Positions 1,826 through 64,000 of a stretch of DNA of 64,000 bases are shown piece after piece. The first letter of the stretch is position 1. Each line of letters starts with the position of its first letter. The notes under the pieces were generated by a model, which searched no databases, had not been told where the DNA came from, and saw nothing but the letters and a program-made list of their open reading frames with translations. Origin of the DNA: a virus; the IMG/VR virus record IMGVR_UViG_3300028800_000012, positions 1 through 64,000 of that record. One strand, written 5' to 3'. The translations under genes and the position numbers were made by a program.

Positions 1826-1885
1826 GCAATACCCGCCGCCTTTATTGCATTGCCTGCGGCATCGGTGCCGCCCTAGCCTCGCCGC

Positions 1886-3505: not shown

Positions 3506-3594
3506 TTACGCAGTACTGCGCCACTATAACGATGATGCACGTTGCGCCGACCAGAGCGGCGATAAATTGAATCACTTCGGCCACGGCGATTGAC

Positions 3595-5924: not shown

Positions 5925-5933
5925 TCTTGTCTC

Positions 5934-11503: not shown

Positions 11504-11811
11504 GCGGCTGCCTTTGTTTGATCCTTTGATGCGCGAATACGGTCTGCGACGATTTTCGCGTATCCTCCGATATCATCCCAATTATCGAGATATTCTCCGT
11601 CTCCGGTAACGATGCGGGAAATCTTCAATGCGATAAGGTCTAGCCCTTCCCGCACATCCACCGGCAAAGACTCCCACAACAATCCCTCATTATCCGGGTC
11701 TGGAATGTTTCGCATCGCTGCCTTAATATTCTGGGCGACGATGGCGTTATGCAGGAACGGTCCATAGACCGATCCGCGCTTCTTCGTGATTTCCGATACG
11801 ATATCAGGCAC
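11500..11811 (-). CDS. DUF6378-like phage protein
   Basis: KKRGSVYGPF...LIALKISRIV...DNWDDIGGYAKIV resembles the DUF6378 (SaV-like) pattern as I recall it. Confidence 0.5.
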   Translation of the reverse strand: MPDIVSEITKKRGSVYGPFLHNAIVAQNIKAAMRNIPDPDNEGLLWESLPVDVREGLDLIALKISRIVTGDGEYLDNWDDIGGYAKIVADRIRASKDQTKAAA

Positions 11812-12244
11812 CGATCAACTCCAATTCTACCCCAGCCTCCGCCAGAATTGCCGATGCGGAGGCGAGGCTGTCTTTCCATCTCTCTTGAAGATGTGGCGGG
11901 CATGCTGGCGCGACACAGCGTTTAATGCCTGCCTGGATCATGTGCGCCGCGCACCTGTCGCATGACATGAACGGCCATGTGTAGAGCGTGAAGCCGTGCA
12001 ACGGTTCTCGCGCCGCCAGGGCGGCGTTCATTTCGCAATGCACGGTGCGGATGTATTTCATATTGCGGTCGGCGTAGAGTTCTTCCGCGTCAGAACAGCC
12101 GCGCGGGAAACCATTAAACCCGACACTCGCAATTGTGCGATCCAGACGCACAATAACCGCGCCAGTCTGTGTGCTTGGGTCCTTCGACCATTGCGCTACG
12201 TGCTTCGCAAGATCAAGAAACCGAATATCCCATTTGTCGATCAT
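11804..12244 (-). CDS. dCMP deaminase
   Basis: Zinc motifs HCEMNA and SCDRCA (H-x-E ... C-x-x-C). 146 aa. Confidence 0.8.
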   Translation of the reverse strand: MIDKWDIRFLDLAKHVAQWSKDPSTQTGAVIVRLDRTIASVGFNGFPRGCSDAEELYADRNMKYIRTVHCEMNAALAAREPLHGFTLYTWPFMSCDRCAAHMIQAGIKRCVAPACPPHLQERWKDSLASASAILAEAGVELELIGA

Positions 12245-12253
12245 ATGTGCGTC

Positions 12254-14682: not shown

Positions 14683-14714
14683 TTTGTTGTGCGATGACTC
14701 ACCGCGTTGACATT

Positions 14715-15071
14715 TCAAAGATGGAACGCTCGCTTCGCGATCCAGAGGTCCGGGTGCGAGATAGTCGTCCACGTCCACGGGTCGATCCACGACCAAACGC
14801 CGATACAGAACGGGATCAGGCCAATCAGTCCGATAAGAACCGCGCCGGCATACGCCAGTTCGGAATCCGAGTATGGGCCTCGGTCGGCGTCTCCTGCCTT
14901 CCGCCAAATCCAACGGGCGAGGAGCATCAAAGCAATCCCGATGCAGACCGTCATAAACCCTGAGACGAGCTGAGAGATCGCCTCCATCCGGGCGGCGGAC
15001 TTAGCGGCGTCCGCGACGGCGGGGCCGTACTTCTCCGCTAGATCGGCAAAGCGTTTTGCGAGTTCGTCCAC
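14715..15071 (-). CDS. Membrane protein (118 aa)
   Basis: Two or three clear TM segments (VSGFMTVCIGIALMLLA, AGAVLIGLIGLIPFCIGVW). Confidence 0.55.
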   Translation of the reverse strand: MDELAKRFADLAEKYGPAVADAAKSAARMEAISQLVSGFMTVCIGIALMLLARWIWRKAGDADRGPYSDSELAYAGAVLIGLIGLIPFCIGVWSWIDPWTWTTISHPDLWIAKRAFHL

Positions 15072-18186: not shown

Positions 18187-18395
18187 GACACGGCATCCTC
18201 GAAAATATCCGGCCGCAGTTTTTCCTTGGGAATTTTTCCGCTCGTCGCAGCGTCAATGGCCTTCGCCATCTTCGGGCTTACCGAGCCGCGCTGCTTGGCC
18301 TGCCAGATCGCATTCTGGGAGTAACCGGTGAGACGACCCAAAGCCGCCTCGGACCCGGCAATCTTAACGGCAGCGTCGAGCAATTCACGGACCAT
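18183..18395 (-). CDS. cro: Cro/YdaS-like HTH regulator
   Basis: Start moved to the ATG at 18395 behind GGAGG (MVRELLDAAVKIAGSEAALGRLTGYSQNAIWQAKQRG...). Divergent from the cI-like gene. Confidence 0.7.
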   Translation of the reverse strand: MVRELLDAAVKIAGSEAALGRLTGYSQNAIWQAKQRGSVSPKMAKAIDAATSGKIPKEKLRPDIFEDAVS

Positions 18396-18489
18396 ACCTC
18401 CGTCTAACACCGATCCGTGTATATGTCAACGCCCTATCGTGTTGGACGGCGTGTTGGATTGTGACCGGGCCGAATGCCAAGTTCCGGCC
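18396..18489. promoter_or_regulatory. Divergent cro/cI promoter-operator region
   Basis: Direct repeats CGTGTTGGA at 18438..18446 and 18450..18458. The 20-bp element TAACACCGATCCGTGTATAT (18405..18424) recurs with one mismatch at 20085..20104. TTGACA reads on the minus strand. Confidence 0.6.
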
Positions 18490-19167
18490 ATGCAGAATCA
18501 GCGAAATCCCGGGGAAATCGTTAGGGATCGGCGCAAGGAATTGGGCTGGTCACAGACGCAACTCGCCAAAAAAGTCGGCTCGAACCAGCAGACGATCGGC
18601 AAAATTGAAAAAGGGCAGACGAAAAAATCTCCTCTTCTGCCGTTGATTGCCGTGGTTCTTGGAATCCCGATCGAGCGATTGGTTCCCGGAGTCAATGCGC
18701 TTGACCCAAATCAGGTGGCGCGAGAACTGCCGCGTTATGTTTTGGACAGCACACAGGTCCGCGAAACAGTTGCTGGTCGGCGTGACTTGCCGTTACACTC
18801 GATGGTGGAAGCTGGAAGTGGTGCGTTGGTAATGTCCTCCGATCCTGTTGATAGGATCGATCGACCCGACGTTTTGACATTCGTCAAAGACGCTTATGCC
18901 GTTATTGTCGTCGGCGACAGCATGTTCCCCGTTCTCAAGGCCGGCTACCGGGTGAAGGTTCACCCGCACACGGTTCCCCGTCCCGAGGACATCTGCCTGT
19001 TTATCCGCGATGAGAACGGCGAGTTCCACGCCACCATAAAGGAATATATCGGCCAAACTAAGGACGCCTGGAAGGTTCGCCGGTATCACCCCAAGGAAGA
19101 AACCATCCTGCTCAAAAAGCGCGAGTGGCCGCGCTGCGATGTGGTGGTCGGCGTCGATTACCGATGA
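18490..19167 (+). CDS. cI: CI-like repressor (HTH plus S24 LexA-like peptidase)
   Basis: Start moved to MQNQRNPGEIVRDRRKELGWSQTQLAKKVGSNQQTIGKIEKG (XRE HTH). The C-terminal VVGDSMFPVLKAGYRV fits the Ser motif of S24 peptidases. Confidence 0.85.
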   Translation: MQNQRNPGEIVRDRRKELGWSQTQLAKKVGSNQQTIGKIEKGQTKKSPLLPLIAVVLGIPIERLVPGVNALDPNQVARELPRYVLDSTQVRETVAGRRDLPLHSMVEAGSGALVMSSDPVDRIDRPDVLTFVKDAYAVIVVGDSMFPVLKAGYRVKVHPHTVPRPEDICLFIRDENGEFHATIKEYIGQTKDAWKVRRYHPKEETILLKKREWPRCDVVVGVDYR

Positions 19168-20778: not shown

Positions 20779-21810
20779 ATGTTGATGCCAGAAACTCTTG
20801 ATCTTTTCAGCGGAGCTGTCGGCGGATGGTCGCTCGGAATGCACCGCGCCGGATTTCGCACCGTCGCGGCCTGCGAAGCCGACCCATGGAGACGCGCCGT
20901 CTATGCCCACAACAATCCGGGAATCCCGATCTACGACGATGTCAGAACCGTCACGGCAGATCGACTTCGGATCGATCTTGGAGAGCTTCCGCCCGTCATC
21001 GTCGGAAGCCCTCCCTGTCAGGACGCCAGCAGCGCCAACACAAAGGGGCGCGGCGTCGATGGCGAGCGCACGGGCCTCTTCTTCGAAGCAATCCGCATCG
21101 TCCGAGAATGCCGACCTCGCTGGGCGGCTTTTGAGAACAGCCCTATGCTCCGAACTCGGGGCTATGACCGGCTCTACGATGCGTTTCAGCAAGCGGGATA
21201 CGCCTGCTGGCCGCTCGTGGTGGGTGCTGACGACCTCGAAGCCCCGCACAAACGAAAGCGCGTCTGGATCATCGCTTTCAACGCCGAAGGCGTCCGACCC
21301 TTATGCTGGCGGTCATGGCGACACCGGCTGGAAGGGATCGCTGGCGCATCAGCTTCGCGGCACGATCCTGACGCCGACATCGATCCAGGGCGAGTTTGGG
21401 CACCGCCTTCGAACGCTGACCGAGACGGCGTTGCCGGACAACGCGCGGCCGAAGCGCCCGAGGAATCTGGACATAGGCAAACTGCCAACGCCGACAGCAC
21501 GGGATCATCGCTCGGGGAAAGCCTCGGAGGCCACGCGCGCGCGCAATTCGAGGCCCTTGAGCGAGCAGTTGGACCAGCGGTCCATGCTTGGAACGGCGGC
21601 GTTGCTCGGCATCTCGGAATGGCTCATGGGCTTGCCGCCCGGCTGGCTGACATCCGCGTGCCTGACCACAAATATCCCGGAGCCACCATCAACGCCGCGA
21701 AGGCGTGCATCTCCGCGCACGGCGACGCCATCCTCCCGCAAATCGCGGAAGCCATCGGACGAAGCATCCTGAGAACCGAAGCGGCGCTGGCCGCCGTTTC
21801 AGGACATTGA
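20779..21810 (+). CDS. DNA (cytosine-5) methyltransferase (central region apparently frame-shifted)
   Basis: Motif I DLFSGAVGG, motif IV SPPCQ, motif VI FENS, motif VIII RKRVWIIA and motif X HGDAILPQIAEAIG all lie in this frame. The TRD-type motifs KLPTPTARD and SEWLMGLPPGW lie in the +1 frame (track ORF 20798..21772). Confidence 0.75.
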   Translation: MLMPETLDLFSGAVGGWSLGMHRAGFRTVAACEADPWRRAVYAHNNPGIPIYDDVRTVTADRLRIDLGELPPVIVGSPPCQDASSANTKGRGVDGERTGLFFEAIRIVRECRPRWAAFENSPMLRTRGYDRLYDAFQQAGYACWPLVVGADDLEAPHKRKRVWIIAFNAEGVRPLCWRSWRHRLEGIAGASASRHDPDADIDPGRVWAPPSNADRDGVAGQRAAEAPEESGHRQTANADSTGSSLGESLGGHARAQFEALERAVGPAVHAWNGGVARHLGMAHGLAARLADIRVPDHKYPGATINAAKACISAHGDAILPQIAEAIGRSILRTEAALAAVSGH

Positions 21811-26035: not shown

Positions 26036-26632
26036 ATGACCGATCCGTTCCACAATCTCCCCAAAGGCCACTTCGACGCGATCCTTGCGGACCCGCCGTG
26101 GTCGTTTGAGGTTTGGTCCGGCAAGGGAAAAGCCCGCTCAGCCGAAAACCATTACGACACCATGACCATGCGCGAGATTGCACGGCTTCCTGTCGATGAA
26201 GTGGCCGCTCCAGATTGCGCGCTGTTCATGTGGTGCTGCTGGCCGTCGATTGGTGACGCGCTACGCATCATTGACGCATGGGGTTTCACCTACAAGACGT
26301 GCGCCTTCTCTTGGATGAAGGCAGATCCATGCCGGCTCTTTGCCGACGATAAAACGCCGTTCGCCGGCATGGGCTACTGGACACGCGCCAATACCGAGCC
26401 GTGTTTGCTGGCAACGCGAGGGAAGCCCAAGCGAATAAACGCTGACGTTCGCCAGGGCATCATTGCCCCGCGCCGCGAGCACAGCCGCAAGCCTGACGAG
26501 ATTCATGAGCGCGTTGAGCGCCTAGTCAGCGGTCCTTATCTGGAGCTGTTCGCCCGCGCGCCGCGCGACAGTTGGACCGTCTGGGGAAACCAAACCGACA
26601 AGTTTTCTCCGGTGACGGAGGCGGCCGAATGA
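26036..26632 (+). CDS. MT-A70 family N6-adenine DNA methyltransferase
   Basis: Catalytic DPPW motif (ILADPPWSF) and conserved EHSRKPDE. 198 aa. Confidence 0.85.
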   Translation: MTDPFHNLPKGHFDAILADPPWSFEVWSGKGKARSAENHYDTMTMREIARLPVDEVAAPDCALFMWCCWPSIGDALRIIDAWGFTYKTCAFSWMKADPCRLFADDKTPFAGMGYWTRANTEPCLLATRGKPKRINADVRQGIIAPRREHSRKPDEIHERVERLVSGPYLELFARAPRDSWTVWGNQTDKFSPVTEAAE

Positions 26633-33431: not shown

Positions 33432-33800
33432 ATGAACGAACCGCGCATAGACGATACCGACCCTATCACGCTGCAAGAGGCGTGCGAGATAGTATTCCGG
33501 GGAACGTGCACGGTTTACACCTTGCGGGCGGAAGCGGCGCGCGGCAGGCTTGAGATAGCCAAGATCGGGAAGCGCTACTATACGACCCTCCGCGCTGCCC
33601 GTGGCCTGTACGTCAAATGCCTCGAAGGAAATCCCCGCCCCGGCTCTATCTTGACCCAAAGCGAAAGCAGTGGGTCATCCGCGACGGCGCAGACTTCATC
33701 CGCACGGGCCGCTCTGAGGCAGAGCGTGACAGCGCTGAAAGGGTCCTCGCAAAGTACCTCGGGCAGAAGCATCAGCCGGAGCGTGGCCCGTCGCCACTGA
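33432..33800 (+). CDS. xis: Excisionase-like HTH DNA-binding protein
   Basis: ITLQEACEIVFRGTCTVYTLRAEAARGRLEIAKIGKRYY fits the AlpA/excisionase HTH pattern. The Ser/Thr-rich tail overlaps the int start by 184 nt in another frame. Confidence 0.6.
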   Translation: MNEPRIDDTDPITLQEACEIVFRGTCTVYTLRAEAARGRLEIAKIGKRYYTTLRAARGLYVKCLEGNPRPGSILTQSESSGSSATAQTSSARAALRQSVTALKGSSQSTSGRSISRSVARRH

Positions 33801-34612
33801 TAGCCGATATGCTGCTGGCCTATACCAGAGAGCACGTCCCGCACACGCGATCGGCAGCAAGTGCGGCCTATCACATCGGTAGCCTGGAGGCGTGGTGGGG
33901 CGACAAGCGATTGGCCGACGTGACCCCGGAAAACTGCCGCGCGTATGCGACCGGCCGCAAGGCTTACGGCGCCCGGCGCGACCTTGAGGTCCTGCGAGCT
34001 GCAATCAACCACTGGCACAGGCACCACGGCCCGCTGCCGGCGGTCCCGACCGTAATCCTCCCGGAGAAAGCCGCCCCGCGCGAGCGATGGTTGACCCGTT
34101 CGGAGGCGGCGAAGCTGCTATGGGCGGCCCGGCGCACTCCGCACCTTGCCCGGTTTATCCTGCTCGGGCTCTACACAGGCTCCCGCTCGGGCGTGATTCT
34201 GGGGGCCAAGTGGGACCAGATTGACCTTGAAAAAGGGCTGATGCGCCGCATTGCCCTTGGGAAGGCCCAGGATAAGCGCAAGCGCGCTCCGACAGTTCGG
34301 CTCGGAAAACGGATTTTAACGCATCTCCGCCGCTGGAAACGGCACGATGATCCCCGAGTCGGGTATCTGTGCCATTACAACGGTGCGCGGGTGCAGAAGA
34401 TGCGCCGGTCGTGGGCTGCGGCACGGAAGCGGGCCAAGCTAGACGCCACGGTGACGCCGCACGTTCTGCGGCATACCAGGGCGACATGGCTGATGCAGGC
34501 CGGGATCGATGTATGGGAGGCCGCTGGGCACTTGGGGATGACGCCGGAGACGCTGCAAAACGTCTATGGAAAACATCACCCCGACTACCAAAAGCGGGCC
34601 GCGGAGGTGTAG
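33617..34612 (+). CDS. int: Tyrosine integrase
   Basis: ARFILLGLYTGSRSG (Arg box), HVLRHTRATW (H-x-x-R) and NVYGKHH (Tyr). 331 aa, adjacent to the tRNA-derived att sequence. Confidence 0.9.
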   Translation: MPRRKSPPRLYLDPKRKQWVIRDGADFIRTGRSEAERDSAERVLAKYLGQKHQPERGPSPLIADMLLAYTREHVPHTRSAASAAYHIGSLEAWWGDKRLADVTPENCRAYATGRKAYGARRDLEVLRAAINHWHRHHGPLPAVPTVILPEKAAPRERWLTRSEAAKLLWAARRTPHLARFILLGLYTGSRSGVILGAKWDQIDLEKGLMRRIALGKAQDKRKRAPTVRLGKRILTHLRRWKRHDDPRVGYLCHYNGARVQKMRRSWAAARKRAKLDATVTPHVLRHTRATWLMQAGIDVWEAAGHLGMTPETLQNVYGKHHPDYQKRAAEV

Positions 34613-34684: not shown

Positions 34685-34726
34685 GGAATGCCGGTAGCTA
34701 AGTAATTGATTTTGCGCGAGAGACGA

Positions 34727-35536
34727 ATGGGAAAAGACGAGAACGGGCTAGCAACATTCGGGGCAATCAGTGCCAATTCTGTGCCACCTTGGCAGCCGCC
34801 TCCGGGGCCGAATGTCCCGACGCTTGGCGCATACATCCGTGAGTTCAAAACCCTCCGCTGGTATCGCCTGCAAGGTCGGCGTGATCGGCATAAGGGATGG
34901 GTGTACTTCATCAGCGATGGCACAGCGGTCAAGGTCGGCTTTGCCCGGTCTGTGCCGCATCGCCTCAAGGCCCTACAGACCTCGCATCACGTCCCGCTCA
35001 AGGTGATCGCCCGATTCAGGGGATCGTTCGACGACGAGAATTCAGTACACCACCACTTGCGATCGGACCGCATTCGCCGCGAATGGTTCAAGCGAACGCC
35101 CGCAATGGACGCGCTTATCGCCAGCCTGCGCATCCTCGAAAGCCCGGTTGCGTATGGCGTGCTCTCAATCAGCGACGTGCTCGACAGACGGCGTATGGAG
35201 GAACTCATGGACGTATTGCGTAGCGACACGCGACGGAAAATCCAGCCGGTGATCAAAGCGAAGCCGGTGCCAAAGCCAAAGGCCATCAGCCGCAGGAAGG
35301 AATGCAAGGCGCTTGCCGACCAGATCGCCGCGCAGGCGAAGCCATATCTTGACGAGATGCCGGCGGAGCTGCGGCGCGTCGTAAGGCACGCCGAACTATC
35401 GGCGCGGTTCAGCATGGCGTCCAAAGCCTTCACATATCCCGGCTGCGTCCAGAACTACGTCAAGGCCGATCTAGCGGCCTACGCGGCACAATTCCCGGCC
35501 TGGCTGGCCGGGCGCAACGCCCTACCCGCCGCTTGA
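34727..35536 (+). CDS. T5orf172 (GIY-YIG-like) domain protein
   Basis: GWVYFISDGTAVKVGFARSVPHRLKALQTS...ENSVHHHLRSDRIRREWFK fits the T5orf172/MUG113 pattern. ATG at 34727 behind GAGAG. Confidence 0.6.
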   Translation: MGKDENGLATFGAISANSVPPWQPPPGPNVPTLGAYIREFKTLRWYRLQGRRDRHKGWVYFISDGTAVKVGFARSVPHRLKALQTSHHVPLKVIARFRGSFDDENSVHHHLRSDRIRREWFKRTPAMDALIASLRILESPVAYGVLSISDVLDRRRMEELMDVLRSDTRRKIQPVIKAKPVPKPKAISRRKECKALADQIAAQAKPYLDEMPAELRRVVRHAELSARFSMASKAFTYPGCVQNYVKADLAAYAAQFPAWLAGRNALPAA

Positions 35537-55408: not shown

Positions 55409-55882
55409 TTAAAGAGCGCCGAGGTATTGAGAGCCGCGCGGATGGTTGAACGCGATGCGCAGTAATGGCGTGGTGCTTGTTCGTGTCGTCCACGCCACAG
55501 TCACGGGCACCATGACCCAATCTGGGTGTGCTTGGGCGGGCGCGCGTTCCGCATAGCGCACGCGGACGACAGTTTCATTTTGCGTCACAACCTGCCCCGG
55601 CGGGAATTTTGCTCGAACTGCGTCGGCGGCGGATTCGGCTAGTCCTGTTCCCGACCCGGATGGGAAGAACAGACTGGCTTGGAATAAACCTTGCCGGATC
55701 GTATCGCCGTATTGACCGAGAGTGCGCGGACGTTCCGCTGTCGGCACCAGCGCATAAGCAACATAGGCGGTGCCGACGACAGGCGTGTAGGGAACGCCCT
55801 CATAGGCCTTGTCGCCCGGCAGTCCTGCCGCTGTATTCGCCTGCACGGTCAGAGCGCCACGGATATCCTGAAAGACGCTCAC
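55409..55882 (-). CDS. Tail terminator/completion protein (DUF4128-like), paralog 1
   Basis: About half identical by eye to 55901..56314 (FQDIRGAL...AYEGVPYTP...PSGSGTG...YAERAPAQ..PDW). Extra C-terminal tail ending FNHPRGSQYLGAL. Confidence 0.55.
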   Translation of the reverse strand: MSVFQDIRGALTVQANTAAGLPGDKAYEGVPYTPVVGTAYVAYALVPTAERPRTLGQYGDTIRQGLFQASLFFPSGSGTGLAESAADAVRAKFPPGQVVTQNETVVRVRYAERAPAQAHPDWVMVPVTVAWTTRTSTTPLLRIAFNHPRGSQYLGAL

Positions 55883-55900: not shown

Positions 55901-56314
55901 TTACAATGCGTTGTGCAAATTCCATCCAACCGAGACTGGAACGGTGATCCAGTCTGGGGTTATCTGTGCCGGCCTGCGCTCGGCATACTCGATGCGCACC
56001 GATGTTTGCCCCTGTGTCACAACATCCCCGGGAACAAACTGGTCTTTGACAGAATCGGCGGCCTGCTCGGCTTGCCCTGTTCCTGAATCGGATGGGAACC
56101 ACAAAGTGATATGAAATTCACCTTGCAGGAGCGTCACAGTCCCGCCGAACGTAACCGGCCGCTCTTGTTCCGGCAGAAGCGAGTAGACGGCATAAGCTAT
56201 TCCGACATTCGGCGTGATCGGCACGCCTTCATAGGCGTGTACCGCCGGCATTCCGGACGCTGCATTAGCTCGCGTCGTTAAGGCCCCGCGAATATCTTGG
56301 AATAGAGTCGTCAC
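55901..56314 (-). CDS. Tail terminator/completion protein (DUF4128-like), paralog 2
   Basis: Tandem paralog of 55409..55882. Confidence 0.55.
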   Translation of the reverse strand: MTTLFQDIRGALTTRANAASGMPAVHAYEGVPITPNVGIAYAVYSLLPEQERPVTFGGTVTLLQGEFHITLWFPSDSGTGQAEQAADSVKDQFVPGDVVTQGQTSVRIEYAERRPAQITPDWITVPVSVGWNLHNAL

Positions 56315-56760
56315 AATGCGGCGACTCTTTGCGCGGTTTCTTCGGCAATGCTTGCGGCACGATCAAGCGTCGATCTAACGAATGAACGCGGGGCCTGATT
56401 GTATTTGCGGCCGAGCGCATCGGTGCCGACAAAACCGAATTCAACCCGCATGGCATAAGTGGCGCCGTTATTCATGTAGAACATGTCGCCGAGTTTGAAT
56501 TCTGCCCCACCAACGAAGCCAAGCGACGCCGCTAAAGCTCCACCGCTTTTCGGACTAGACGGACCTGACACTACATCCTGCGCATTGATCGATGCGTACC
56601 ATGACGCCCGCAGAAACCCCGTCTTGACCGGCGTCGCTTCAATCACCTGTTCGCCGATATCCTGCACGAATTCGGACGCGAACAGTTGCGCCCGGCCCTT
56701 GGCCTTCTGCACAAAGGCGTCGATGTTGACGGTGAATTCCTTGGTGTCGGCGGTAAACAT
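56311..56760 (-). CDS. HK97 gp10-like head-tail joining protein
   Basis: ATPVKTGFLRASW is the signature motif of the HK97 gp10 family. Confidence 0.7.
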   Translation of the reverse strand: MFTADTKEFTVNIDAFVQKAKGRAQLFASEFVQDIGEQVIEATPVKTGFLRASWYASINAQDVVSGPSSPKSGGALAASLGFVGGAEFKLGDMFYMNNGATYAMRVEFGFVGTDALGRKYNQAPRSFVRSTLDRAASIAEETAQRVAAL

Positions 56761-57122
56761 TACTTGCGCACCTGCAGCGTGTAACTGCCGATGATGCCGC
56801 CGATCTCGCGCGTCTTGAAATTGACAACCGTGTAGACATCCGACCCGACGACAAGACGGTCACCCACCTGCGGGGTGACGCTAGTATCGGTCGGGAGAAA
56901 CGTTGCCTTGCGGTCGGATTCCTTGATGACGGTGCCGTCCTGCGCAACATCGGAATAATCGCCGAGCCGTCCAGTGCCGGGGTAGTCGGTCGTCGTGTCG
57001 CCGGTTGTCGTGCCTGTGGTTGGGTCATACGTGCCGGCAACAATGCGCCGCAGCGTCATTGCCCGGCCCATGTCGCCGAGAAACCCGACGACACTCGCCT
57101 GGAATTGATTGCCGACCGTCAT
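56760..57122 (-). CDS. Head-tail adaptor / head closure protein
   Basis: 120 aa, position in the connector block. Contains a Thr-rich loop DPTTGTTTGDTTTDYPGTG. Confidence 0.5.
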   Translation of the reverse strand: MTVGNQFQASVVGFLGDMGRAMTLRRIVAGTYDPTTGTTTGDTTTDYPGTGRLGDYSDVAQDGTVIKESDRKATFLPTDTSVTPQVGDRLVVGSDVYTVVNFKTREIGGIIGSYTLQVRK

Positions 57123-57580
57123 CAGCTCGTCGCGTCGTCGATGAAGTCGCGGCTATACGGCAGCGCAGTACCGGGGAAATCCATCTGGCCGACCTCGAAG
57201 CGATTCGGCTCGCGATCCGTATCCTGCCGCTCCGTATCCATATCGGCTTTGCTGGTGCCGCCGACGAACGGCGACCCAAGCCCGCCGCTGTCCGCCGTGA
57301 CCGCCTGTGTTCGCAGCCGAGTCGCCAGTGCGCGGAACATATCGGCGCGCTGGTTGTATTGCACGCTGGCGCCGTCGATCGACATCGCCGCAAAGCGGGA
57401 ATACTTCGCCGCCTGTGCATCGGCGAGTGCTGCCGCTGTCTGCAACGGCGATCCATAGATGCCGAGCGCGCCGGAAATTTCTTCGTCTGAGAACAGCGGG
57501 TCTGACGTGGTTGTATCGCCGAGTGCCAAGCGGACTTTCGCAAGATCGTTCGCCAAAGATGTGTCGTAAGTAAACGTCAC
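57122..57580 (-). CDS. Head-tail connector protein
   Basis: 152 aa. N-terminal LAKVRLALGDT is typical of gp6-like connectors. Confidence 0.5.
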   Translation of the reverse strand: MTFTYDTSLANDLAKVRLALGDTTTSDPLFSDEEISGALGIYGSPLQTAAALADAQAAKYSRFAAMSIDGASVQYNQRADMFRALATRLRTQAVTADSGGLGSPFVGGTSKADMDTERQDTDREPNRFEVGQMDFPGTALPYSRDFIDDATS

Positions 57581-58377
57581 TTTCCGTCCACCATTTCACG
57601 CACAACACGAAGATATTTGAACGCCAACCCCATATTCATTTCGGCGAGCGTGAACTGCTGTTGGACTAATGAAGCCCACCATTGACGCCTGTTGCCGGGC
57701 ATCTCCGGTTTTTCCAGATCGGCGAGATCGAGATTCCCGACCGGCGCCGCCGCAGACGTTGGCTCGACAAACACAGGGACGCCCTCTTTTGCGGCTTCTA
57801 CCGCCGCATTGCTCGAATGCGTCACCAAGGCCCAACAACCCCGCAATTGCTCGCGTAACGGCCGGGTTTCTTCCTTGGTCCGGATAATGATCGGCCGGTC
57901 TGTGTGCTGCCGCACAAGCCCTTGGATTTTACAGGCCCAAGGGATGACCTTGATCCCCATTGCACGGCCGTAATGCACGCTCGGCAACGCTATGAGAACG
58001 TGCTTTCCCGTCGTTCTCCACGGCTTGATCTCGCGGATGCACATCGCCTCCGCGCGCTCGTAATCCGGCTTATCGAACATGACGGGAGTCATGCCGCGAT
58101 AAGTGAACCTGTAGTAACCGAACGGGCCGCCCTTAGCCGGCCGCCAATAACCGTTGTCAATATGCCAGAACGGACGATCTGCTCTTATTGCCTGCGGGAT
58201 AGCATCAAGCGCCGTCCAAAGCTGGCCCCATATTGCAAATGGAGCGCCGTCATTCGGCGGCATTCCTGCGACCAGCGCCGCCTTCTCTCCCCACCCCGGC
58301 GCTAGTGACGCCATGATGCGGGTTGTCTTTATTCTCCGCTCAGGCTCGACTACGCACCATAGGCGAACGTCGCTCAT
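57577..58377 (-). CDS. Putative glycosyltransferase (GT-B-like)
   Basis: HVLIALPS...THSSNAAVEAAKEGVPVFV resembles the nucleotide-sugar-binding half of GT-B / capsule-type transferases. ATGA-coupled to the connector gene. Confidence 0.4.
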   Translation of the reverse strand: MSDVRLWCVVEPERRIKTTRIMASLAPGWGEKAALVAGMPPNDGAPFAIWGQLWTALDAIPQAIRADRPFWHIDNGYWRPAKGGPFGYYRFTYRGMTPVMFDKPDYERAEAMCIREIKPWRTTGKHVLIALPSVHYGRAMGIKVIPWACKIQGLVRQHTDRPIIIRTKEETRPLREQLRGCWALVTHSSNAAVEAAKEGVPVFVEPTSAAAPVGNLDLADLEKPEMPGNRRQWWASLVQQQFTLAEMNMGLAFKYLRVVREMVDGK

Positions 58378-58389
58378 GGCGCGGCACTC

Positions 58390-59031
58390 CTACCAACTCA
58401 GGATATAATCACCGGCGATGACCTTCCGGACTTGCGCGCCCCATGAGCACAGCAATTCAACGGCATCGGTATCTCCGATGCCGAACTGCTTACCCTTGCC
58501 GATCTTCTGCTCGACAATCATGGCCGGACGATACTTGCGGATGGTCTGCGCGCCGCCTTTGCAAACAAACAGTTCGAACCCTTCGCAATCGATTTTTACG
58601 AGGTCAACATTGGCGAGTTCGAACGAATCCAGAGTCTTCATCTTCGCCAGATGCTCACCGTGCGCGGCAATCCATGTATCGCCCGATGAACTCTCGCCAG
58701 TATGCAGCGAAACGGATGCCCCGTGATCGCCGAGCGCAAACGGCCAAATATCGCAATTGTCTGTTTTGATATTCGCGTACCAGCATTCGCGGTGCCGCTC
58801 GACCGGCTCGAATGCCGTGACGTGCCGGAACATGACGGACAGAGGCCGCGTCCACAGTCCCGTATGCGCCCCGATATCGACTGCATGGCGGAAGTTCTTC
58901 ACATACGGTAGCGCCGCCATCAGTTTGTGCAATTGATAACTGGGACCGCCGGCAAATTCAGGCCCGTTCTCCAGAAATGCATCCAAGTGCGATTCACCGT
59001 CAGGGAGAAAGAAGCCATTAACTTGCTTCAA
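58390..59031 (-). CDS. FkbM-family methyltransferase
   Basis: SAM motif AVDIGAHTG and the family motif VKIDCEGFE. Confidence 0.75.
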   Translation of the reverse strand: MKQVNGFFLPDGESHLDAFLENGPEFAGGPSYQLHKLMAALPYVKNFRHAVDIGAHTGLWTRPLSVMFRHVTAFEPVERHRECWYANIKTDNCDIWPFALGDHGASVSLHTGESSSGDTWIAAHGEHLAKMKTLDSFELANVDLVKIDCEGFELFVCKGGAQTIRKYRPAMIVEQKIGKGKQFGIGDTDAVELLCSWGAQVRKVIAGDYILSW

Positions 59032-59810
59032 GCAAGCCTCACTTTCGCCGCGTCATAGACCTCATCGGCCCCGATCCGCGCCATGCAGTCTCGACAATGG
59101 TCGCAAGGAGCAAGATTCCCGCAACCCAGATCATCGCCGGTAAACATGTTCGTATGCACGTCGTAGCCTGTTACGCGCGGCGAAATAAACCCGCCGAAGA
59201 TCACCACCGCAGCGATACCAAGCGCCGCCGCTGCATGATGCAGCCCGCCTTCTGGTCCGACATACAATTGCGCCCGCTCAAGCGACGCGCATGCGAGCCG
59301 GAATGTAGCGGCCTTGATTGTTCTGACACCGGCTAGCCGATGCGGCCCCGTGTCGAACTGCGCCACGTCGTGCCCGTCCATCGCCAACTGATCGGCGACT
59401 TCCTGATACCTGTTGACCGGCCACTGCTTATTCGGCGCCGAATGCTTGGTGTTCGGCTCGATGATGACGTCGGCATCGCCGAACGACTTCGCCCATTCCC
59501 GCTCGGCGTCGGTCAGATAGAGTTCGCCGGGGATAGCCTTGAAGCCTGGATTAAATATCCATCGATCGCCATCGATCCGGCAGTAAGCCCGCGCGCCGGG
59601 CGCATGGATGATCCAGTCTATCGATTCGCCGGTATCCTCCGCGCCGGGAGGCGCGACGTTCGGATTGCCGCGGTAGATGTCATGGGCATTGCGGTGCCAG
59701 ATGATGCGGCGGCAATTAACGTCACTGAAGGCGACGCGCTTGCCGTGCTTGGCTGCGCCTTTGGCAAGGCCGGAGCCAAGGATCTCGTCGCCGAAGCCCG
59801 TGACACGACC
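59028..59810 (-). CDS. GT9 (heptosyltransferase-like) glycosyltransferase with no canonical start codon
   Basis: My translation is open for 260 codons: TGFGDEILGSGLAKG...NKQWPVNRYQEVADQL...LYVGPEGGLHHAAAALGIAAVVIFGG. The first ATG/GTG/TTG is codon 142. It is in frame with the upstream gene across a single TGA. Confidence 0.55.
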   Translation of the reverse strand, partial: GRVTGFGDEILGSGLAKGAAKHGKRVAFSDVNCRRIIWHRNAHDIYRGNPNVAPPGAEDTGESIDWIIHAPGARAYCRIDGDRWIFNPGFKAIPGELYLTDAEREWAKSFGDADVIIEPNTKHSAPNKQWPVNRYQEVADQLAMDGHDVAQFDTGPHRLAGVRTIKAATFRLACASLERAQLYVGPEGGLHHAAAALGIAAVVIFGGFISPRVTGYDVHTNMFTGDDLGCGNLAPCDHCRDCMARIGADEVYDAAKVRLA

Positions 59811-60761
59811 TCAATTATAGGCGACGCATTGTTCGCATGGCGTTCCGCGCACATCCTTTTTCAGATGCGCCGCACGCAATGCCGTGAATGCCGCCGAATT
59901 CCACGCATCCATAAACGGCTGCTTAGTCAGATCGCCCATCGCCCATGATTTATTCGCGTCGAAGCAGCAGGCGGATAGCTTCCCGTCGGCCGTGACATGG
60001 CCTTCCGTGAAAGCTGACCAGCAAGGCAATGGCTCTCTTAACGCCCCGAGCCTGCCTTGATTGCCGGCGGTCGGCCGGTATCCGAGTTCTTCTTCCCGCG
60101 CCGTCGCAAATGCACCCATCGAGTACAAGGGCAGCCAGTAATGCTCGTCCACATACGGCACGACATGCTCGGCCAGGAGATTTTCCATCTTGGCCTGTTG
60201 CTCGCCGTCATACCGGATCGAAGACGCATAGAGTCCGGTCGGATACCCCCTCGCCTCGCGCAATTCCCATGCGGCTTTGATATTGCTCAGTGCGATCGGA
60301 TACAGCCGGCGGTCAACCGCCATGACGTGTTCGAACTGGTCTTCATCCGCCGCATTTACCGACCATTTGATCGAGTCGATGCCGGCGCGCATGAGTTCGT
60401 CGACCCAGCGCGGCTTTGCCAGTGACGCATTCGACGTGAGGAATACATACGGCATCCCCACGTCCTGCTTGAGGTATTCGACGCAGGCGACAAGCAGTTT
60501 GGGATTCATCATGCTTTCGCCGAGGAAGAAGCACCCGACCTCCTCGACGCCGGCATCGCGCATTTCGCGTGTGATTCGCTTGAAAAACTCGAAATCCATG
60601 TCGGACTTCGGCTGTTCCTCGCGCGTCCGTAGAGCGCAGAAGCCGCAGCGATAGTTACATCGCGGCGATATTTCGATCTTGACCGAGCGCGGCGCGGGAC
60701 ATTCGGCCTTGAGATATGCCGGGGGAATTTTTGTGACGGCATCGATGCGTTCGGTAATCAT
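59811..60761 (-). CDS. Radical SAM protein with a C-terminal Cys cluster
   Basis: CNYRCGFC (CxxxCxxC) and a C-terminal CW...CC...CEQC cluster. Start set at the ATGA-coupled ATG (MITERIDAVTK). Confidence 0.75.
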   Translation of the reverse strand: MITERIDAVTKIPPAYLKAECPAPRSVKIEISPRCNYRCGFCALRTREEQPKSDMDFEFFKRITREMRDAGVEEVGCFFLGESMMNPKLLVACVEYLKQDVGMPYVFLTSNASLAKPRWVDELMRAGIDSIKWSVNAADEDQFEHVMAVDRRLYPIALSNIKAAWELREARGYPTGLYASSIRYDGEQQAKMENLLAEHVVPYVDEHYWLPLYSMGAFATAREEELGYRPTAGNQGRLGALREPLPCWSAFTEGHVTADGKLSACCFDANKSWAMGDLTKQPFMDAWNSAAFTALRAAHLKKDVRGTPCEQCVAYN

Positions 60762-61498
60762 CGCGCCGCCCACTCCGCCAATGTTGAACGCCATTCATCG
60801 GCGAATGGAACGTCCTCGTATCCCGCCATGCAGGGAGAACCCAACGTATGGTGCACGACCTTCGGGCTTTCGATCGGCTCGCTTTCGCCGGCCAGCCAAT
60901 TCCATTCCGGAGCGAGTTCGCCGATTTGGTCGTCTTTCAGCCAGCAGAGCCGATGCAGATCGCGGCCGGGAAGCGTATTGACGAGTTCGGGCGTGAGCGC
61001 CTTGTTTGCCGTTCGGTCGCAATCAAAAACGACCAAGCTGCTCCAGTTTTTGCGGGCGTATTTGGTCTGCGCCTGCCCGTCCATTTTGACGGTTGAATGC
61101 GGCTCATGCTGATGCTTGACGCACCATGCGGCCTTTGGGCTTTCCTGCCGCTCGATCCATTGGAACAGGCGGCACAGGTTTTCCCTGACCAGCATGTCGC
61201 AGTCCATGAACAGCGCCAGCCCATGACCGGCGAGATGCGGAACAAGAAAGCGAGATATCGAGAACTGCGTCGAGCAAGGAGCGCCGCTGATCTCGTCCCA
61301 CAACTGCCACTGACCTTCGCTGTTCAAGCGCCGGTCGGTGGGTCGGCGGTAGAGCCCCCGCTTTTTCAAATCATCCAGCACCAGGCCATACACCGGCACC
61401 GGAAGCGTCAGTCTCTTGTTGATCGAGTGGCGGGCTACAGCGAACGCGGCGGCTTCACGCGGATCGAAGCCGATCCAGATACTCCAAGCCCTGCTCAA
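60758..61498 (-). CDS. GT8-like (GT-A, DxD) glycosyltransferase
   Basis: IWIGFDPRE N-terminus, FSISRFLVP, and the DxD motif in LFMDCDMLV. Confidence 0.6.
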   Translation of the reverse strand: MSRAWSIWIGFDPREAAAFAVARHSINKRLTLPVPVYGLVLDDLKKRGLYRRPTDRRLNSEGQWQLWDEISGAPCSTQFSISRFLVPHLAGHGLALFMDCDMLVRENLCRLFQWIERQESPKAAWCVKHQHEPHSTVKMDGQAQTKYARKNWSSLVVFDCDRTANKALTPELVNTLPGRDLHRLCWLKDDQIGELAPEWNWLAGESEPIESPKVVHHTLGSPCMAGYEDVPFADEWRSTLAEWAAR

Positions 61499-62129
61499 TC
61501 GTCACCTTTGGAAAAGCGTCAACGGTCGATATCGGCGAGGCATTCAAAACCTCGACGCCGCTGCGTTTGAGTTGGGGGAGACAGGCGTTGAAATTGTCGC
61601 CCCAGTTTTTCCAGTACCGGGCGTTTTGTCCCGCCGAGTACCAGTAGTAGTTTTCTAATTTGTAGTGATGCCCGCCCTGCTCGGTGTAATCGAAGCCGAA
61701 CAGAACGATACGCTTTGCGCCTTTGAGATAGGCGAGATTGACAGCGCCGAACCCGGAATTGCCGCCGCTTTGAATGACGGCGGGGTCATCGCTTAAGCCC
61801 TCGAAACGGGAGAGCCGAAGATACTTCGCCCGCTCGATCAGCGGACATTCAAGCGGAAACTCGTATTCCTGCCCGGTCGGAGCGAGGAAGATTTCCGCCC
61901 GGCACTCATGCCGCAATTTGTCGGCCTGCCGGCATATCCACCGCCGGTCCAATGCGAACACCGCATCGGCAAACGGCATTTCCCACACCGCTTCCTTGAC
62001 GGCGAGAACGCGAATGCCGGGAATGTGGAAGCGGCGGAAGTCGATATCTTTGAGGCTCGGACCCGTGCCGACGATTGCCAGCGGTTTGTCCGACCAATCC
62101 GGGTCGCCGATGCTCGTAAACGGCAGCAT
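61455..62129 (-). CDS. DUF115 / Maf-like glycosyltransferase
   Basis: Start moved to MLPFTSIGDP. IVGTGPSL and GGNSGFGAVNLAYLKGAKRIVLFGFD match the DUF115 (MptE/Maf-like) pattern. Confidence 0.6.
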   Translation of the reverse strand: MLPFTSIGDPDWSDKPLAIVGTGPSLKDIDFRRFHIPGIRVLAVKEAVWEMPFADAVFALDRRWICRQADKLRHECRAEIFLAPTGQEYEFPLECPLIERAKYLRLSRFEGLSDDPAVIQSGGNSGFGAVNLAYLKGAKRIVLFGFDYTEQGGHHYKLENYYWYSAGQNARYWKNWGDNFNACLPQLKRSGVEVLNASPISTVDAFPKVTIEQGLEYLDRLRSA

Positions 62130-62518
62130 CAGGACTTCGGCTTGTTCTTCGAACCTTTCGGTCGGCCGCCCTTGCGCCTGACGGGTACATCCGCCGCCAT
62201 GCACACGGTCTGCGCAGCCTCTTGCGGCGCCGCTTCAACAGCCAGAGGCGGCGCAAATGGCCGGTCGTTCTGCGTGATGTAATTCCAGTCGGCTTCTTCG
62301 GCCCGCCTGATCCAGCGCCGCTCGTAATGCTCTTTCAGCATCCGAGTGGAGAATTGAGACTTGTCGACAAGATCGCCGACACGCGGATGATATCCATTGA
62401 CGGTGAAGCCTTTCGGCCACGCGCCATAGACGTAATCCGCGTCTCGATCGAATGGTAAGAGCCAGTACGGGGCGTTCGGTGATGGCACCCTAGGCGTCCC
62501 GCACTGTGTTTGTGCCAC
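62129..62518 (-). CDS. Hypothetical protein with an AT-hook-like C-terminus
   Basis: 129 aa. C-terminus RRKGGRPKGSKNKPKS. Directly downstream of the capsid gene. Confidence 0.45.
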   Translation of the reverse strand: MAQTQCGTPRVPSPNAPYWLLPFDRDADYVYGAWPKGFTVNGYHPRVGDLVDKSQFSTRMLKEHYERRWIRRAEEADWNYITQNDRPFAPPLAVEAAPQEAAQTVCMAADVPVRRKGGRPKGSKNKPKS

Positions 62519-62531
62519 GTATCAAGGCCGA

Positions 62532-63548
62532 TTAGGCGATGATCGTGTTGAAAAACACGCCGCACTCAGCCGCGACGAGTTTTTGCGCATACGCCTGTTG
62601 GATTTCCAGCCGGTCGGACTCAAGATGCTCTATCCGGAACTTCTTGATGCGCTGACCGGCGGGTCCGGCGCCAGTGAAGCCGACCCAGTTGAACGTGTAG
62701 CCTCCAGACGGAGACTGCAGGCTCGCGGCAGGAGCCGCATACACAAGCAGCGCCGACTTGCCGCCGATGAACGCATTCGACTCGTTCGTGTTCAGCGTGG
62801 TCGAATTGCTTTCCGCGCCCGTATTCTTGACGGCATCCATGACGAGGATTTCGTCAATTTCCATCAGCGCGGCGACGGCCTGCTTGGTGATGATGGCCGG
62901 CGCACCCGGAGACGCGCCGTACTTGATGCGGTCCGTGATCGAGCCGTGCTCGGACAGCTTCGACCAGACCTGACGGCCCATGACCAACTTGTTCGCCCGG
63001 AAGGTGGACGACAGGTGGATGCGGTCGTTGTAGGTCTTCACATCAGCGACGGGGGTGGCGTTGGAATCGTTCCACTGAAGGACGGTATTTCCAGCCGGGG
63101 AAGCCGAGACGCCGGTCACGTCGACCGACGCGCCGGTCCAGATGCCGGTGGTGAAGTAATTCGACGCCCAGTTGACCTCACGGTTGATGAGCGCCTTGTT
63201 CGCAAGGAAGTTCGTTGTATCGCGGTCCATATCGAGCGGCGAATCCGCATTCGAACGAACCTGATCTTCCACATCCTTGTGCAAGGCCCACACGTCGGCG
63301 TAATACGTCGGCGTGTTGTCGATCCTCCAGCCATCGCCGGCCGATTCCGAACCGGGCGCACGCTTCTTCATCGAGTCGCGGTTGAGGTCGCCGCGCGAAT
63401 AGACGAAATAGCGGTCGGACTGTTTCTGTACGGGAACGGCCGGGAACACTTTGTCGGCGACAAAGGCGTCCGGCTTCTGCATGAACGCGACGGAGATGTT
63501 CGTCAAAATCGCATTGACGTGGACATCGCCAGCGACAGGGTTAGCCAT
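62532..63548 (-). CDS. Major capsid protein (lambda gpE-like family)
   Basis: 338 aa. The N-terminal region and length fit E-type capsid proteins. Preceded by a decoration-like gene. Confidence 0.7.
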   Translation of the reverse strand: MANPVAGDVHVNAILTNISVAFMQKPDAFVADKVFPAVPVQKQSDRYFVYSRGDLNRDSMKKRAPGSESAGDGWRIDNTPTYYADVWALHKDVEDQVRSNADSPLDMDRDTTNFLANKALINREVNWASNYFTTGIWTGASVDVTGVSASPAGNTVLQWNDSNATPVADVKTYNDRIHLSSTFRANKLVMGRQVWSKLSEHGSITDRIKYGASPGAPAIITKQAVAALMEIDEILVMDAVKNTGAESNSTTLNTNESNAFIGGKSALLVYAAPAASLQSPSGGYTFNWVGFTGAGPAGQRIKKFRIEHLESDRLEIQQAYAQKLVAAECGVFFNTIIA

Positions 63549-63620
63549 TTGTACTGCTCCCTCTAAGGGAAAGCCGGCGCTGTCACAGCGCGGGCGTAGC
63601 GAAAGGGGTGCGCCTCAACG

Positions 63621-63643
63621 AAAAAGCCGCCCTTAAGGCGGCC
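63621..63643 (-). terminator. Intrinsic terminator-like hairpin between the decoration and capsid genes
   Basis: The minus strand reads GGCCGCCTTAAGGGCGGCTTTTT: a 6-bp GC stem, a 5-nt loop and a T5 run. Confidence 0.5.
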
Positions 63644-63671
63644 ACCATCAATGCGCTAGGTTGTCTGTTTG

Positions 63672-64000
63672 TTATGGAAGGCCGGTCGGGCGGAACAGCA
63701 TCGGGATAACGTCTCCCGATACGCCGGTCGCCAGCGCAACGCCGAGATTGTACGCATCGGCAGAGCCAGCCGCGACGCCCTTGGCGTTATTGTCCGTGAC
63801 GATGCGATTGCCGGCAGTCACGTTGCCGCCGAGAGTGATCTTGGTCACACCGAACGGCCGCACCTTGGCCGCACGCGACGCAGCGCCAGGCGCATTCTGC
63901 AATACGCCAACAACGTCGGCGCCGAGCGTTGCCGCCGCCGCGTTGCCGGACGAATCGACAGTCATGAAAAGGTACTGCTTGGCCGACAAGTCGGCAGCCG
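63672..64000 (-). CDS. Head decoration / DUF2190-like protein (5' end probably outside the window)
   Basis: Gly/Ala/Val-rich beta protein (GVLQNAPGA...VTKITLGGNVTAGNRIV...GVALATGVSGDVIPML). The frame stays open to the window edge. Confidence 0.45.
   Translation of the reverse strand, partial: AADLSAKQYLFMTVDSSGNAAAATLGADVVGVLQNAPGAASRAAKVRPFGVTKITLGGNVTAGNRIVTDNNAKGVAAGSADAYNLGVALATGVSGDVIPMLFRPTGLP

Follow-up and report, generated by a model that had tools for sequence, protein, structure and literature searches.

Glycosyltransferase genes between the capsid and connector genes of a temperate siphophage, and a radical SAM gene set among them

What would genes for sugar-transferring enzymes act on when they lie between the major capsid gene and the head-tail connector gene of a phage? 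The question is raised by the virus record IMGVR_UViG_3300028800_000012, of which positions 1 to 64,000 (64,000 nucleotides, called the window throughout) were analyzed here. Seven minus-strand open reading frames (ORFs), numbered g1 to g7 in the order in which they follow the capsid gene, occupy the whole capsid-to-connector interval. A first-pass annotation, made from the letters of the window, had read them as one seven-gene cassette of glycosyltransferases, a radical S-adenosylmethionine (SAM) enzyme and a methyltransferase, and as a candidate system for glycosylation of the virion. The ORFs and their positions are as described there, but g1 belongs to the head module of the phage and g4, the radical SAM gene (rSAM), is a later insertion, leaving a core of five enzymes. 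Comparison with related loci shows these five to have entered the g1-connector junction long ago, in a single clade of temperate siphophages with Bradyrhizobium-type hosts, and the rSAM gene to be an addition apparently gained afterwards by this phage, exactly between g3 and g5. Glycosylation of virion proteins is the best reading of the cassette, and one that we hold tentatively.

The interval between capsid and connector

Relatives of the window phage were collected by searching IMG/VR with an alignment of capsid proteins, which gave 80 related loci. To them was added L184, a prophage of Bradyrhizobium sp. Arg62, which is a cultured strain (GCA_020889755.1, contig JACMYL010000041.1); the L184 capsid protein is 76% identical to that of the window. 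The capsid protein alone, searched against genome contigs, returned one distant planctomycete locus. The capsid proteins of the relatives are 43-78% identical. All nine loci with a capsid at least 63% identical (L093, L096, L097, L104-L108 and L184) carry g1-g2-[g3]-g5-g6-g7 right after the capsid gene, and the approximately 70 loci with a capsid at most 59% identical are without the cassette. The distance from the capsid gene to the tail tube gene is mostly ∼2.3 kb without the cassette versus 6.4-7.2 kb with it, and the capsid and connector genes are separated by 154-440 bp in the four cassette-less relatives in which the connector was located. The survey of synteny proposed in the first-pass annotation therefore shows the cassette to be added material. 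Cassette proteins are 50-82% identical among the relatives, in parallel with the structural proteins, and the GC content of the seven genes, overall and at third codon positions (GC3), equals that of the rest of the genome, suggesting long residence in the phage. A fragment of host lipopolysaccharide (LPS) genes captured recently, one of the findings that would have told against the earlier proposal, is not what these loci contain, since the contexts are those of phages and the divergence tracks the structural genes. The arrangement is also not due to chance, because the gene order is kept in nine relatives and the ratio of nonsynonymous to synonymous substitution rates (dN/dS) in g5 is ∼0.1.

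Homologs of g1 directly follow the capsid gene in relatives that lack the cassette, including L109, L110, L112, L116, L125 and L174, which makes g1 an ancestral head-module gene and places the cassette insertion between it and the connector gene; its earlier listing as the first cassette member, an "AT-hook-tailed protein", is thus set aside. Family searches with g1 gave no match. Its N-terminal 60-70 residues are conserved far more widely than its tail, also in phages without the cassette, and the AT-hook-like tail KRKGGRPKGSKNKPK was seen in three relatives only (relevant positions are 62129-62518 in the window, 8477-8809 in L093 and 4545-4859 in L108). At the other end of the interval, g7 and the connector gene of L184 are separated by additional genes spanning ∼4 kb (10780-14868; products of 155, 513, 355, 188 and 143 aa, with no Pfam matches), so that the slot has taken up other insertions as well.

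Gene models combine the gene calls of the European Nucleotide Archive (ENA) with our own sequence reading. Neighboring genes overlap by 1 nt at 62129 (g1/g2), by 44 nt (g2/g3), and by 4 nt at g5/g6 (59028/59031) and at g7/connector (57577/57580), and g3 and g4 share an ATGA at 60758/60761, so that the start/stop overlaps noted earlier were all recovered. No promoter-like site was found on the coding strand from 56500 to 64000, and no terminator-like site in the intergenic gaps between capsid and connector; within coding sequence, weak matches occur in ordinary number. These observations agree with the earlier view that the cassette is embedded in the late structural operon, and the overlaps indicate translational coupling among the five enzyme genes as well as with their structural neighbors. 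None of the cassette proteins has a transmembrane segment or a signal peptide, and no flippase is encoded in the cassette; 19-residue Kyte-Doolittle windows nowhere exceed a mean of 1.6, except for one core-like stretch in g5 (HHAAAALGIAAVVIFGGFI).

Table 1. Positions of the genes and signals discussed in the text (window coordinates)
Feature	Position	Strand	Description and matches
Major capsid protein	62532..63548	minus	338 aa; phrog_1005 5.5e-80; PF03864 1.7e-05; upstream boundary
g1	62129..62518	minus	Small protein of the head module, 119-129 aa; AT-hook-like tail at the C-terminus (KGGRPKGSKNKPKS) is variable
g2	61455..62129	minus	224-aa MptE-like/DUF115 protein resembling GT42 (Cst-II); phrog_4603 7.2e-26
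g3	60758..61498	minus	246-aa GT8-like GT-A glycosyltransferase; phrog_28018 4.4e-52; invariant D99xD101
g4 (rSAM)	59811..60761	minus	316-aa radical SAM enzyme; PF04055, PF13186; identical to database protein P0001
Probable g5 start	59799..59812	minus	Shine-Dalgarno GAGG, 7-nt spacer, ACG; GAGG overlaps the rSAM stop codon; ACG at 59801-59799
g5	59028..59801	minus	257-aa GT9-like (heptosyltransferase-family) GT-B glycosyltransferase; PF01075 9.4e-08
g6	58390..59031	minus	213-aa FkbM-family SAM-dependent methyltransferase; PF05050 1.1e-13; TIGR01444 9.3e-18; phrog_8156 1e-24
g7	57577..58377	minus	266-aa GT-B-like protein; fold closest to beta-Kdo transferases KpsC, WbbB, KrkA
Head-tail connector/adaptor	57122..57580	minus	phrog_1732 3.6e-21; downstream boundary
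Hc1	56760-57122		After connector gene; phrog_161
CI-like repressor	18328-19167		
C5-cytosine DNA methyltransferase	20779-21810	plus	Early region
MT-A70 family methyltransferase	26036-26632	plus	Early region
Integrase	33617-34612		

The enzymes of the cassette

All the motifs quoted in the first-pass annotation were found in the translations (IVGTGPSL, GGNSGFGAVNLA..GFD, FMDCDM, CNYRCGFC, VDIGAHTG and KIDCEGFE), and the family calls held for g4 to g7, those for g2 and g3 being less certain. The description of g2 as "DUF115/Maf-like" finds support, as to the superfamily, in the match to phrog_4603 and a profile match to Cst-II, but g2 scores below the Pfam threshold (PF01973, 2e-5, 24.8 bits versus a cutoff of 34.6, although six of ten g2 homologs match this family), and it is not a full-length Maf protein, because it has 224 aa and Maf proteins have ∼600 aa with large extra domains. 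When a g2 profile was compared with the Protein Data Bank (PDB), Cst-II was matched at 6e-4 with both conserved motifs aligned and the Maf structure 5mu5 only at E=0.31; PDB sequence searches with g2 alone, or with g7 alone, were empty. By these matches g2 is probably a short member of the MptE-like/DUF115 superfamily, whose closest solved relative is the Campylobacter sialyltransferase Cst-II, and it is predicted to transfer an ulosonic acid activated with cytidine monophosphate (CMP). The window protein g3, called GT8-like with a DxD motif, has no Pfam match even at E<=10, but its DxD is invariant and 9 of 30 homologs match PF01501 (best 1e-5); weak PDB matches include the GT8 enzyme GlyE (the best, E=0.023) and WbbM, and the likeness of g3 to GT8 is a distant one.

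The assignment of g6 to the FkbM methyltransferases passes both curated cutoffs (PF05050, 52.1 bits versus 22.7; TIGR01444, 65.1 versus 37.7). For g7, called GT-B-like, an AlphaFold2 (AF2) model with a mean per-residue confidence (pLDDT) of 95.3 was compared with the PDB by Foldseek and matched KpsC (E 4.5e-07) and WbbB. KpsC, WbbB and KrkA (GT107/GT99) are the closest structures, but at template-modeling (TM) scores of 0.49-0.55 and 11-13% identity, and g7 is shorter than they are. Against BFVD the model matched CcrColossus K4JVV7 and Tetraselmis virus "capsule polysaccharide biosynthesis" proteins, and a match to PF20471 is weak. The GT99/GT107 transferases, which add beta-linked 3-deoxy-D-manno-octulosonic acid (Kdo), have a modified GT-B fold with a catalytic Asp nucleophile and use CMP-Kdo as donor.

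The GT9-like call for g5 is borne out once the full ORF is used: read from 59810, just after the rSAM stop codon, g5 passes PF01075 (32.1 bits versus a cutoff of 22), and the 119-aa ORF that begins at the first canonical start has no Pfam match. The g5 frame remains open past the rSAM stop codon TGA (59813-59811), and its first 141 codons contain no ATG, GTG or TTG, none occurring before 59387. Homologs of g5 begin at the codon just before G[FL]GDE, and this codon is ATG in L107 and L001, GTG in L184, L006-L010 and L013, ATC in L093 and L096, and ACG in the window phage. Weak, coupled initiation at the near-cognate ACG at 59801 is the likeliest reading of this arrangement. Stop-codon readthrough or an rSAM-GT9 fusion, which were considered for the in-frame g5, were rejected given the starts of the homologs before G[FL]GDE (ATG, GTG or ATC) and the GAGG placed 7 nt upstream. 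A g5 pseudogene was rejected on the dN/dS relative to L093, which is 0.11 in the 141 codons upstream of the first canonical start and 0.10 in the rest of the gene, so that purifying selection acts equally on both parts. The public ENA gene call has a spurious opposite-strand ORF in place of the N-terminal half of g5.

The remaining enzyme, g4, was correctly described as a radical SAM enzyme with a C-terminal Cys cluster. It matches PF04055 (5e-14, 53.2 bits versus a cutoff of 29.5), with CX3CX2C at C35/C39/C42, and the SPASM/twitch family PF13186 (1.7e-12; cutoff 21.5), with C247, C265, C266, C309 and C312 invariant. Five C-terminal cysteines would be enough for one auxiliary cluster, as in twitch-type enzymes, but not for a full SPASM domain, which has seven or eight. 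When g4 was compared with named radical SAM enzymes (MoaA, viperin, PqqE, NirJ, anSME and BtrN) at the NCBIfam equivalog cutoffs, it fell below every one (TIGR04317, the best match, 58.7 versus 380; MoaA, 47.9 versus 284; viperin, 36.9 versus 450), and its AF2 model (pLDDT 77) is about equally like viperin, SuiB, BtrN, SkfB, DesII and MoaA. Identification of g4 with a known enzyme was rejected accordingly, the NCBIfam, PDB sequence and Foldseek comparisons giving only generic rSAM/SPASM similarity (viperin, SuiB, BtrN, MoaA, DesII and anSME). The C-terminal auxiliary-cluster region aligns with that of BtrN, the twitch-domain radical SAM dehydrogenase of 2-deoxy-scyllo-inosamine, which g4 also matches in fold, and the C-x18-C-x42-C-x2-C spacing of g4 resembles what we take to be the ligands of BtrN; the BtrN core, however, is only distantly related to g4, and the cores of viperin, MoaA and SuiB score equal or better. 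By analogy, our best guess is that g4 would edit a sugar or sugar nucleotide in the manner of BtrN. A literature search on PDB entry 9DFU gave nothing useful.

The rSAM insertion is exact, the ORF lying between the g3 stop codon and the 9-nt spacer ahead of g5 and being coupled on both sides, and the gene is present in none of the nine closest cassette-bearing relatives, so that among them the window phage alone has it. At E<=1e-10 its family comprises 4447 database proteins, of which over 100 are 74-84% identical to the window protein. Six of the closest members (76-79% identity) were viewed in context, and all are stand-alone chromosomal genes in glycosyltransferase-free surroundings with anaerobic or low-oxygen neighbors: hemN and nnrS/nap (L084), an FNR/CRP-type regulator (L086), nar and ubiU/ubiV/ubiT (L088), and nnrU, a tandem paralog and nrdDG (L091, L098 and L101). 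Neighbors of the chromosomal copies also include feoAB, and sometimes the gene forms a tandem pair with a 41%-identical paralog. Literature searches returned no function for the chromosomal family. In a neighbor-joining (NJ) tree without support values, the window rSAM clusters with the chromosomal copies (76-79%) and not with other viral copies (at most 73%). Viral copies are numerous nonetheless, the family being found in at least 98 IMG/VR loci, and among the 62 with flanks on both sides of the rSAM gene, a g3-like gene lies within 150 bp in 31, in either order, and within 2.5 kb in 40. Other frequent viral neighbors, identified by sequence reading and not by family search, include a tetratricopeptide-repeat (TPR)-GT9-like protein, SAM methyltransferases, GDP-mannose-4,6-dehydratase-like and DegT-like aminotransferase proteins, terminase, portal and capsid. 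Among cultured phage proteins, the search with the rSAM protein gave a 24%-identical Enterococcus phage match only.

What the cassette might glycosylate

The cassette is not confined to the clade of the window phage. A lambda-like Mesorhizobium prophage (L094), with a different terminase and portal, carries g2-like, g3, GT9, two methyltransferase and g7-like genes directly after its capsid gene; in L095, g3, GT9, methyltransferase and acetyltransferase genes lie downstream of the portal gene; and in the podovirus MW202512 the capsid gene is followed, at a distance of 3-4 kb, by FkbM and g3-like genes. Among cultured phages, the siphophage CcrColossus encodes gp126 ("sialyltransferase", g2-like), gp128 (g7-like), gp129 (g3-like), the methyltransferase gp130 and gp131 (GT9, g5-like) on its late strand, and homologs of these genes are found in the Caulobacter phages CcrSC, CcrPW, CcrBL9, C1, C2, J4 and others. 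Compared with the window, the CcrColossus genes are in another order, in the interval between tail genes and lysis cassette, and without an rSAM gene. Of the earlier impression that a multi-enzyme cassette with a radical SAM member was unfamiliar at this position in a proteobacterial siphophage, only the rSAM member therefore stands as unusual. Without rSAM, the cassette is a mobile module of late operons, shared by several lineages of phages that infect Alphaproteobacteria. A distant blastn comparison of the whole region with cultured phages gave trivial matches only, and literature searches found no paper characterizing the cassette.

We suggest, as the best reading but one whose chances we put slightly short of even, that the cassette glycosylates virion proteins. 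The enzyme families recall the toolkit of the LPS core, with transfer of Kdo or another ulosonate, of heptose and of hexose, and since the cassette has no genes for sugar-nucleotide synthesis, the transferases would draw on host cytoplasmic pools of LPS-core precursors, namely CMP-Kdo or another CMP-ulosonate, ADP-heptose and UDP-hexose. The enzymes appear soluble, without transmembrane segment, signal peptide or flippase, which points to action in the cytoplasm, where a short oligosaccharide capped by O-methylation would be built on virion proteins late in infection; rSAM might modify the sugar, or the sugar nucleotide, that enters the g3 step, perhaps through an oxidation like that of BtrN. 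The repeated linkage of the cassette to capsid or tail genes in unrelated phages, together with its apparent expression among the late genes, is consistent with a virion target, and related enzymes act on proteins: Maf/DUF115 enzymes glycosylate flagellins, GT9 includes autotransporter heptosyltransferases, and GlyE glycosylates a serine-rich repeat protein.

Several observations weigh against this reading. When tube, Hc1, connector and capsid proteins were aligned between phages with and without the cassette, no cassette-specific Ser/Thr-rich insertion was found, and the loops in Hc1 and the tail tube protein proposed earlier as acceptors proved to be variable in both groups; loops of the capsid protein likewise fail to tell the groups apart. 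The capsid protein, with …GVFFNTIIA at its C-terminus, has no Ser/Thr-rich tail like those glycosylated in mycobacteriophages, and the last residues of the tube protein are …KPTSGSPSSALQVTRF. The best-studied members of three of the enzyme families (KpsC, WbbB, WaaC and the GT8 LPS-core enzymes) use lipid-linked acceptors, and the CcrColossus cassette abuts lysis genes and not the capsid gene. With its ACG start, g5 could be barely expressed in this phage. As to rSAM, its late insertion and chromosomal closest relatives make its link to glycosylation uncertain, and its 76-79% identity to stand-alone chromosomal genes suggests that its substrate is a common host metabolite.

The enzymes might instead remodel the host envelope. 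At the inner membrane, on its cytoplasmic side, they would act on lipid A-core or on intermediates linked to undecaprenyl or lyso-phosphatidylglycerol, and LPS or capsule would be altered in the course of lytic growth, one conceivable benefit being that receptors on debris or neighboring cells are hidden. The LPS-core-like enzyme set (KpsC/WbbB-like fold, GT9, GT8-like), the label "lipopolysaccharide biosynthesis glycosyltransferase" given to g3 homologs by JGI, and the lysis-cassette neighbor in CcrColossus all suit this explanation, and papers on rhizobial phages and pelagiphages annotate such glycosyltransferase genes as auxiliary genes that modify LPS (PMC5537653, PMC7029224). Known serotype conversion, however, is expressed in the lysogen from genes near the integrase or attachment site and relies on membrane proteins, while the cassette lies inside the late head-tail operon, far from the integrase, and has no transmembrane segments; LPS made late would presumably replace only a small share of the surface receptors before lysis. 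We therefore regard envelope remodeling as rather unlikely, and Gtr-type serotype conversion does not fit a cassette that encodes no membrane proteins and lies in the late operon, well away from the integrase. We consider it improbable that the target is a host protein (flagellin or pilin, for instance) or something else in the cytoplasm, glycosylated so as to alter the receptors of competing phages: the g2 superfamily does include the Maf flagellin glycosyltransferases, and homologous cassettes occur in Caulobacter phages, relatives of which use flagellum and pili as receptors, but g2 lacks the large extra domains of Maf (its match to 5mu5 being that given above), late expression leaves little time for surface turnover, and nothing in the window indicates a host protein target. 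More improbable still is glycosylation of hydroxymethylated bases in the phage DNA. Phage GT-A and GT-B enzymes that glycosylate 5-hydroxymethylcytosine are known (bioRxiv 10.1101/2023.12.21.572611), and the window encodes a C5-cytosine methyltransferase; yet a scan of the 20 larger ORFs outside the cassette, small ones not being covered, turned up the C5 and MT-A70 methyltransferases only and no homolog of TET/5mYOX, of a dCMP/dUMP hydroxymethylase or of thymidylate synthase, which makes such modification unlikely, and the cassette lies in the head-tail operon rather than the replication module and is kept beside the capsid gene in the relatives.

A separate matter is whether rSAM takes part at all. 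The gene may be a passenger with no functional tie to the cassette, captured as an auxiliary metabolic gene from an anaerobic regulon of the host, with the five other enzymes working without it; we regard this as quite possible, though somewhat less likely than not. The nine closest relatives have the cassette without rSAM, the nearest homologs are the chromosomal stand-alone genes beside hemN, FNR/CRP-type regulators, nar/nap, ubiUVT and nrdDG, and the window gene groups with them in the NJ tree. On the other hand, the gene sits precisely at the junction and is coupled in translation to both of its neighbors, other viral loci pair rSAM with GDP-mannose dehydratase-like and DegT-like aminotransferase genes, and the family adjoins g3-like genes in half of the flanked viral loci, in both orders, a recurrence which suggests that the substrate or product of rSAM feeds the g3 step. 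The fullest version of the virion reading, in which a mobile five-enzyme cassette builds a methyl-capped, LPS-core-like virion glycan in phages of Gram-negative bacteria and a twitch-type rSAM, repeatedly recruited beside a GT8-like transferase, tailors that glycan without oxygen, is speculative, and we doubt that it will hold in all its parts.

Virion glycosylation has been shown for mycobacteriophages and for some eukaryotic and archaeal viruses; we know of no demonstration in a phage of a Gram-negative bacterium. In some mycobacteriophages the glycosyltransferase genes lie next to the capsid gene, and the glycans are carried by capsid or tail-tube subunits, at their C-termini. Glycosylation of mycobacteriophage virions by phage glycosyltransferases was reportedly described by Freeman and colleagues in 2023, a work cited in PMC12619734 and PMC12582341. 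As in those systems, phage glycosyltransferase genes in the window are linked to virion structural genes; in contrast, the host is of Gram-negative type, the enzyme families are others, neither capsid nor tube has a Ser/Thr-rich C-terminal extension, and the cassette adds Cst-II-like, KpsC-like, GT9 and FkbM members and rSAM. In the chlorovirus PBCV-1, virus-encoded glycosyltransferases that act in the cytoplasm, together with an O-methyltransferase, furnish the major capsid protein with a methyl-capped glycan, and one protein, A064R, combines two glycosyltransferase domains with a methyltransferase; we know of no report that chlorovirus glycosylation genes are clustered with the capsid gene. 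The PBCV-1 capsid glycosyltransferase is also mentioned in bioRxiv 10.1101/2023.12.21.572611. PBCV-1 is a eukaryotic giant virus, and the window cassette has no sequence relationship to it. Gtr systems (GtrABC, epsilon15-type) are, like the window cassette, sugar transferases in temperate phages of Gram-negative hosts, but they work in the membrane, are expressed by the lysogen and have their genes close to the attachment site, whereas the window cassette is soluble, late and situated amid head-tail genes. The cassette is thus not unique to the window phage and is a putative variant of virus-encoded virion glycosylation machinery. New features are the insertion of rSAM and its origin, the LPS-core-like repertoire, the near-cognate g5 start and the clean presence/absence phylogeny that defines the insertion.

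The cassette is widespread: g3 has 2640 homologs, Caulobacter phages in culture carry the cassette, as do prophages of Bradyrhizobium and Mesorhizobium, and CcrColossus and Bradyrhizobium sp. Arg62 are tractable cultured systems in which to study it. Were the virions decorated, this would bear on host recognition, on particle stability, on immune recognition of therapeutic phages and on the annotation of "LPS" glycosyltransferases in phage genomes, and it would be the first virion glycosylation system in phages of Gram-negative bacteria. It would also give a handle on a large (>4000 database members), highly conserved and uncharacterized radical SAM family, which has anaerobic gene neighborhoods in chromosomes and has been paired repeatedly by phages with a glycosyltransferase.

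The rest of the genome

In the ENA contig ERZ27245399:k141_959026 (64,759 bp), the right end of the window runs on into its left end after only 128 bp, which makes the window a rotated copy of an assembly of ∼64.1 kb that looks circular. To judge from its sequence, it is a near-complete temperate phage genome, and the word "prophage" used for it earlier was replaced by this description. DnaB and a primase are encoded in addition to the repressor and integrase (Table 1). The late operon runs from the terminase gene (5934-7301) off the left end of the window and continues from the right end through the decoration and capsid genes, so that the terminase, portal, MuF and protease genes at 993-7301 form the upstream part of the operon that contains the cassette.

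A strong terminator-like hairpin lies in the gap between the decoration-protein and capsid genes (63625-63643, minus strand; 8 pairs, 6 of them GC, followed by TTTTT) and could act as an attenuator within that operon. The 709-aa Mu-type portal protein (3795-5924, minus) has a precomputed Pfam match to the ADP-ribosylating exotoxin domain PF03496, and the portal of the related Bradyrhizobium prophage (L184, 1-1106) has in its place a match to PF23474 (Acb1), which is presumably an anti-CBASS (cyclic-oligonucleotide-based antiphage signaling system) family; a swappable effector domain may thus be fused to the portal. Two adjacent, paralogous tail-terminator-like genes (55409-55882 and 55901-56314, minus) match PF13554 in the public gene table, compared with a single match each in L093 and L184. 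An RNA-ligase-family protein (PF09414) is encoded in the replication region (9737-10474, minus), and a T5orf172/MUG113-domain protein (34706-35536, plus) adjoins the integrase.

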